From Podarcis cretensis (Eukaryota): a stretch of 64,000 nt of DNA. The stretch is from NCBI GenBank assembly GCA_951804945.1, contig OX638151.1, positions 45,012,001 through 45,076,000 on the forward strand. The letters are read 5' to 3'. The notes under the pieces are model-generated. The model saw only the letters and a program-made list of their open reading frames with translations. It was not told the origin of the DNA and did not search any database. Below are positions 5,736-6,187 of this stretch, one piece after another (position 1 is the first letter of the stretch; the number at the start of each line of letters is the position of its first letter). The translations under genes were made by a program, and so were the position numbers.

Positions 5736-5769
5736 GTTTCCACTGCTTACTCACGAGTAACAGCAAGGG

Positions 5770-5780
5770 ACTGGCAGATT
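5770..5780 (-). other. Non-tRNA primer binding site (self-priming type)
   Basis: AATCTGCCAGT 2 nt after the 5' LTR, no TGG; exact reverse complement of LTR sense ACTGGCAGATT at 5908-5898. Confidence 0.8.
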
Positions 5781-5782
5781 GC

Positions 5783-6187
5783 TGTAATGGTATTGTGTGG
5801 TTACTCGTGCGTAAACTGCCTCCACTTCGATTAGGTGGTTTGCTCAAACATGTTCAGGGTTAGAGCTCGCCCTCCGTGACCTGTTAGTCACTTGCAGAAT
5901 CTGCCAGTGGGCGTTTCTTGAATCTCTTCCAGCATAAAAGCTGCTTGACCCCAAGTCTCCGCCTATGTTCCCTGCGCGGAACGCGTCTGCGCAAGTAAGG
6001 GGATGGCAAGGGCGTGCCAGCGCTCTCTCCGCTGGTTTCGGTTGAAGGGTCTTGGAGCCCTGACACCGATTCCTCCAGCTCCTCTCTATTGGTGTCACAC
6101 TGAATTCCTTCCCCCAGACTGGTTCCCTCTCCGGCATCGCTCTGGAGCCCTGCCTCCGCTTCTCGCTCTGATGTCAGTTCCCTGACA
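5783..6187 (-). repeat. 5' LTR of the Gypsy element
   Basis: Identical by eye to 642-1046; upstream of the PBS and gag ATG; TTTTAT element at 5939-5934. Confidence 0.96.

Follow-up and report, generated by a model that had tools for sequence, protein, structure and literature searches.

A predicted self-priming chromovirus in the lizard Podarcis cretensis and candidate host-type motifs in its integrase tail

Introduction

The elements Tf1 and Tf2 of Schizosaccharomyces pombe and Tj1 of S. japonicus are Ty3/gypsy elements with a chromodomain, like the element described here. Their primer-binding site (PBS) lies just past the terminal CA of the LTR and is complementary to the LTR and not to a tRNA, and a central duplex is accompanied by two flanking duplexes (PMC10085805, PMC4600332, PMC5341516). 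For Tf1 this three-duplex arrangement has been published as a 'pretzel' (PMC10085805). According to three of the papers seen, self-priming is a common feature of Tf1/sushi elements in yeast and vertebrates (PMC6317226, PMC4600332, PMC10085805). The same papers cite Butler 2001 for self-priming of vertebrate sushi-type elements, the mode of priming that we propose below, and treat the vertebrate cases as predicted or implicated. The mechanism is already known, and self-priming with three duplexes is expected for the clade, vertebrates included. Among the titles and abstract openings that we searched we found none on self-priming of a lizard LTR retrotransposon; primary PBS tables may already list cases.

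We analysed a window of 64,000 nucleotides from Podarcis cretensis that contains an element of this kind. The priming of Tf1 has been demonstrated experimentally, whereas that of the lizard element is predicted from sequence. The analysis adds clean comparative support from a reptile, with three families, different letters and compensatory changes. As the family is very young and present in high copy number, self-priming in a vertebrate could be tested directly.

The element and its surroundings

The element occupies positions 642-6187 of the window on the minus strand and is a Ty3/gypsy chromovirus; the predicted priming site is at its 5' end. All features are listed in Table 1. The two LTRs are identical and are bounded by TG and CA. 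The domain order protease, RT, RNase H, integrase is present together with a C-terminal chromodomain, and in the window copy pol is split into two overlapping frames. The candidate slippery site differs by one letter from GGGAAAC, which we observed in 17 out of 40 diverged relatives. A comparison of gag with the PDB gave a single match, the PEG10 capsid 7lga (E 5.7e-06).

We scored at least 40 DNA matches to the element, all of them 99-100% identical, and at least 122 gag matches with identities of 66-100%. By all indications of the sequence the insertion is recent and the family, referred to as family A in the following, is young and abundant. The original prediction had described a reptile element. 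This agrees with the closest named element homologues, which are from Podarcis, and with a PSIP1 exon of the same genome that is 99% identical to Podarcis muralis.

Table 1. Features of the element in window coordinates
Feature	Position	Strand	Remarks
5' LTR	5783..6187	-	405 bp; ends TGTCAGG...CATTACA; identical to 3' LTR
TTTTAT	5934..5939	-	31-26 nt upstream of primer; poor candidate for a TATA box; read as Leu-Leu-Cys in the 3' LTR
Predicted self-primer and predicted RNA 5' end	5898..5908	-	11 nt; start placed by prediction
R arm of third (R-U5) duplex	5895..5897	-	pairs with 5782-5784
U5 arm of U5-leader stem	5800..5816	-	5800-5809, 10 perfect pairs; 5811-5816, 6 additional pairs
Primer-binding site	5770..5780	-	begins 2 nt past LTR; no TGG
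Leader arm of U5-leader stem	5745..5761	-	
gag	4752..5735	-	capsid, CCHC knuckle
Candidate -1 slippery site GGAAAAC	4764..4770	-	in gag/pol overlap; predicted frameshifting
pol frame 1	2542..4797	-	protease, RT, RNase H
pol frame 2	743..2734	-	integrase, SH3, chromodomain, long tail ending within 3' LTR
Chromodomain	1355..1498	-	PF00385, E 1.4e-09
TIM-like motif 1	1268..1321	-	W-x3-F, 9-residue acidic Thr linker, FVGF
TIM-like motif 2	1130..1183	-	W-x3-F, 9-residue acidic Ser linker, FRGF
Polypurine tract	1047..1060	-	within pol frame
3' LTR	642..1046	-	U3 and first 22 nt of predicted R coding in pol frame
Target-site duplication GGGGG	637..641	-	partner 6188-6192, within a 7-G run

Elsewhere in the window (7089-7152, 7926-7980 and 18776-19240) there are microsatellites of GATA and of AAATC, and short direct repeats that probably belong to an old transposon. 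A GC-rich, exon-like open reading frame with a hydrophobic N-terminus (10818-11090, minus strand) shows some likeness to exon 1 of PGAM5. Our guess that the element might be intronic, within a PGAM5-like gene, found no confirmation: this frame gave no Pfam match and only atlas leads below 0.9, and the 30 kb beyond the window start contained no convincing further exon for such a gene.

Relationship to Tf1/sushi elements

A search with a gag profile yielded 40 loci, which we divided into 28 members of family B and 7 members of family C; the remaining 5 belong to neither. The RT of family B is about 53% and that of family C about 70% identical to the RT of the window element. We computed a quick maximum likelihood tree of the RT-RNase H region with IQ-TREE (41 rows, excluding sushi-ichi and Tf1; SH-aLRT support only, midpoint root). 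The window element, families B and C and a Crotalus protein group together in a squamate clade (SH-aLRT 99), which is nested in a clade of vertebrate and fungal sequences (SH-aLRT 99); two flowering-plant rows and the non-chromodomain rows fall outside. Amn-ichi is, we assume, likewise a lizard (Anolis) element.

The PBS does not correspond to a tRNA 3' end and is complementary to the element's own LTR, as in the Tf1/sushi group. A CCHC Gag and a -1 overlap between gag and pol, both typical of members outside the fission yeasts, are also present, and both ends of the LTR conform to the Sushi att motifs TGTYANR / CNTNACA as given in Table 3 of PMC3601003. By these characters the element is a chromovirus of the Tf1/sushi group. 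The elements of fission yeasts have Gags without CCHC and a single ORF or a stop codon, whereas the window element combines a CCHC Gag with overlapping gag and pol frames and a slippery site. A further difference from Tf1 is that pol of the window element extends across U3 and the primer. In fish and amphibians most relatives end soon after the chromodomain, often with an RPRGRP tail, while the window element has a long tail. The chromoviruses of plant CRM group A are tRNA-primed and centromeric and carry a CR motif in place of the chromodomain; the window element keeps its chromodomain and its pol frame covers the primer too. Many gag matches of the family C type (frames of 377 aa) are located no more than about 0.5 Mb from the end of a contig, the start and the end of C1 being examples, and a subtelomeric clustering is possible.

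Pairings at the 5' end of the element

The original prediction had read this region as a signature of tRNA-independent self-priming, and all of its coordinates are correct on the minus strand. The PBS at 5780-5770, AATCTGCCAGT, is perfectly complementary to ACTGGCAGATT at 5908-5898 in the LTR, and the same holds for CACGAGTAAC in U5 (5809-5800) and the leader at 5761-5752. There is no TGG at the position of the PBS, the first one being found 40 nt downstream of the LTR end. TTTTAT is present at 5939-5934 and position 5908 is the A of a CA. We detected two further components that the original prediction had not included. The U5-leader stem continues beyond one mismatch with 6 additional pairs, and a third duplex joins R 5897-5895 with 5784-5782, leaving one bulged C and extending further with mismatches. 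This R-U5 duplex prolongs the primer helix. All three duplexes of the 'pretzel' can thus be drawn at the sequence level, although nested folding displays only two of them as the stems cross. Because the U5-leader stem crosses the primer helix, the whole structure would be a pseudoknot. When the RNA was folded from 5908, pairs 2-10 of primer and PBS showed probabilities of at least 0.98. The U5-leader stem received a probability of 0 in the same nested folding, which reflects its crossing of the primer duplex and is a limit of the model rather than a refutation. Rfam gave 3 matches over 5600-6300, all far under their gathering scores.

Covariation within family A

In the 30 near-identical copies we found all four arms unchanged in 28 cases; in the remaining 2, single changes result in G-U pairs. 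We then used an alignment of diverged members. It comprises 37 rows including the window and was derived from 40 diverged copies, after removal of 3 without the LTR-end pattern and 1 with a truncated LTR; the gag sequences of the aligned copies are 65-100% identical. Over the 888 pair cells of this alignment 97.3% are paired, compared to 24-38% for control structures that were slid along the sequence. Changes on both sides were observed in 6 of the 24 pairs (shuffle mean 2.6; 6 reached in 1 of 500 shuffles) and in 22 cells (8.2 by shuffling; reached in 0 of 500), with the significance of both values inflated by kinship among the copies.

Most relatives carry ACTGACGGATT as primer and AATCCGTCAGT as PBS, compared to ACTGGCAGATT and AATCTGCCAGT in the window. 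The window thus differs at primer positions 5 and 7, and its PBS has changed to match. Primer position 2 is altered on both sides in two copies. In the U5-leader stem, column pair 171/217 is U-A in 20 copies and C-G in 15. The two-sided changes of the primer helix (positions 2, 5 and 7) represent few independent events, and some of them may be paired CpG decay. Matched changes of LTR and PBS could also arise by templating; for Tf1, about half of the cDNA is reported to bear a copy of the PBS at its 3' end (PMC11042837). If the matched changes had such an origin, they would themselves be a result of self-priming. The conservation of the primer alone is no evidence for pairing, as its copy in the 3' LTR encodes protein as well.

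Primer-binding sites of families B and C

The PBSs of families B and C differ from that of family A and are also located 2 nt past the terminal CA. In family B the PBS has a perfect complement in its own LTR in 19 of 28 members (10 nt, in two alternative versions); one more member shows a G-U pair, 5 have mismatches and in 3 no site was found. In family C the complement is perfect in 5 of 7 members (11 nt, two versions), with 10 of 11 pairs in another one, which represents a third version, and no site found in the last. We compared seven PBSs with seven LTRs in all combinations. Matches between a PBS and its own LTR extend over 10-11 nt, those with any other LTR over 5-8 nt. These family-specific, self-matching PBSs are the strongest evidence in the sequences for self-priming. 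The original prediction had named compensatory changes in related families as a check, and they are found in both forms, as two-sided changes in family A and as self-matching with different letters in families B and C. The U5-leader stem is looser in family B. Family C has no clean helix adjoining the LTR end, and its stem is placed differently. The LTR complement follows about 27-30 nt after GATAAA or CTTAAA in both families.

Priming and its alternatives

It is, in our view, very likely that 11 bases from the element's LTR, and not a tRNA, serve as primer for the synthesis of its minus-strand DNA. The claim that the element self-primes is supported by the covariation within the family and by the different, self-matching PBSs of two other families. 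By analogy with Tf1, transcription would start at or beside 5908 and the 5' end of the RNA would fold back onto the PBS. The RNase H of the element, whose domain is present, would cleave after base 11, and the RT would extend the new 3' OH across U5 and R. The pairing suggests a start at 5908 +/-1, which we regard as probable. Contigs from four putative-RNA sets (4 of the 23 runs listed) contained only diverged relatives over 5400-6300 and are uninformative on the start.

A host tRNA half or fragment could prime at the PBS, with the complement in the LTR being incidental. Priming by half-tRNAs is known in Ty1/copia lineages, but it is reported there for copia elements only (PMC6317226). We assembled a set of host tRNAs from a search that scored 63 candidates and yielded 30 loci, in which ARAGORN identified 28 sequences; the removal of 2 wrap-around artefacts left 26. 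This comparison set is incomplete, with 10 anticodon labels among its 26 sequences. The anticodon arms of tRNA-Cys match the PBS perfectly over 6 nt, and looped duplexes with some tRNAs reach -17.5 kcal/mol compared to -17.0 for the bare primer. However, the full duplex of R/U5 and PBS amounts to -22.6 kcal/mol, and the longest perfect tRNA match to the 18 bases after the LTR is 7 nt, compared to 11 for the LTR. By length of perfect match no tRNA in the set beats the LTR, the comparison that the original prediction had named as its test. Furthermore, LTR and PBS have changed together across three families, for which a host tRNA of constant sequence offers no explanation, and we regard tRNA priming as extremely unlikely.

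The pairings might also be a real RNA structure that serves packaging, dimerisation or translation control, with the start further upstream and priming by other means. This would be compatible with a start that is placed by prediction and with the weak TATA evidence. Against it, the duplex lies exactly 2 nt past the LTR end in three families, which is the position that copying of the att end requires of a primer; it is 10-11 nt long as in Tf1, and no other primer site is present. A structure of this kind in place of self-priming thus seems very improbable to us. The last explanation is chance complementarity or the remnant of a local inverted duplication without function. Short matches do arise randomly: when we dinucleotide-shuffled the LTR 20,000 times, at least 11 nt complementary to the first 18 nt after the LTR occurred in 33 cases and at least 10 nt complementary to the next 27 nt in 92. 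Both pairings together occurred in none of the shuffles, compensatory changes are seen, and the same geometry recurs with unrelated letters in families B and C, so that the comparison across families contradicts this explanation. Its probability appears negligible, and self-priming is the reading that we retain.

Promoter signals and the end of the pol frame

The integrase frame includes the polypurine tract, the whole of U3 and the primer, and its stop codon at 745-743 is 23-25 nt into the predicted R. The integrase tail thus takes codons from all of U3 and from the self-primer, and the same letters serve primer, promoter and protein. An end of pol within R as in the window was observed in 15 of the 35 family A copies with a chromodomain match, the others being broken earlier, and in 2 copies of family C; in family B the frame stops at or just before the GATAAA box. 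In 13 copies we counted the variable columns over the last 30 codons and obtained 11, 7 and 16 for codon positions 1, 2 and 3. The end of the frame (743-1046, minus strand) contains a basic stretch that we take to be NLS-like.

The original prediction had used TTTTAT to support the start site, and this part did not hold. At -31 to -26 no more than 15 of 37 copies have TTTTAT, and the variation of this hexamer is almost entirely synonymous within Leu-Leu-Cys-Trp codons (x-L-L-C-W in 34 of 37). With this frequency a conserved TATA box is ruled out. TTTTAT looks constrained by the protein and therefore says little for a TATA box. Better support comes from the AT-rich boxes that families B and C have at the same distance. 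The predicted R/U5 of family A (5783-5908) contains no polyadenylation signal of the AATAAA type, and the R borders are thus without independent support. Family C, by contrast, has an AATAAA.

TIM-like motifs in the integrase tail

The TND-interacting motifs (TIMs) of host proteins are described as a hydrophobic anchor, an acidic linker of 8-16 residues with Ser/Thr and an FxGF, the latter being essential for the binding of LEDGF and HRP2 (PMC9987994; bioRxiv 624023). The integrase tail of the window element has the same layout as the TIM/IBM of KMT2A, JPO2, IWS1, MED1, CDC7-ASK and JIL-1, but the owners of those motifs are host proteins. The lentiviral integrase binds the same LEDGF domain via its catalytic core and is not known to use an FxGF motif for this. 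In the literature that we found there was no report of a TIM-type motif in a retrotransposon, although its absence from print is not proven by this.

Both motifs of the window element sit directly behind the chromodomain, and both linkers are within the length range of host TIMs, acidic and furnished with Ser or Thr. In 35 tails of family A we observed two FxGF in 24 cases, one in 4 and none in 7 that are truncated or out of frame. Across 22 aligned tails the aromatic residues and glycines of the motifs are 91-100% conserved, with some spacer positions invariant too. W-x3-F, the candidate for the hydrophobic alpha-helical anchor of a TIM, is invariant or nearly so in these rows. We shuffled the 213-residue tail 100,000 times and encountered two FxGF in 71 shuffles and one full pattern in 70, the pattern having been defined post hoc. 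The tail of family C has a single STFxGF and that of family B no FxGF. The end of the chromodomain could be located in 81 of 120 RT relatives; among these 81, an FxGF tail was found in 3, all from Podarcis, and 34 have tails shorter than 30 residues.

Searches with the tail gave little beyond the element itself. Pfam detected nothing in the tail, and a profile search against 1.84 billion representatives returned 2 proteins, both relatives of the element, and no host TIM protein. The only PDB match was Nef with an E of 0.072, which we took as chance. Sequences matching the LEDGF domain were found at two places in the host genome. We predicted a complex of the 71-aa stretch with both motifs and the Podarcis LEDGF domain and obtained a score of 0.07 against a mark of 0.34, in a run without alignments and with a tool unvalidated for peptides; this score speaks neither for nor against binding.

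We tentatively suggest, as a possibility somewhat short of even, that chromoviruses of lacertids evolved host-type TIM motifs, with phosphorylatable acidic linkers, which would bind LEDGF/HRP2 and so direct new insertions to chromatin that is being transcribed. On the sequence pattern, family A has two full motifs and family C a looser single one. The motifs are a more novel lead than self-priming. If the suggestion is true, a retrotransposon would have reached the tethering factor of HIV independently, by mimicry of a linear motif. It would then also provide a second, independent route to LEDGF/HRP2-guided integration and a mechanism of target selection for vertebrate chromoviruses.

Other sequences occupy this place in related elements. 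The tail of family B, which is encoded in U3, reads RRSARL where family A has FxGF, and in our view RRSARL resembles the nucleosome-binding core of HMGN. Many fish relatives carry an RPRGRP stretch directly behind the chromodomain, presumably AT-hook-like; with RPRGRP at this very position, the module behind the chromodomain seems to have been swapped between lineages.
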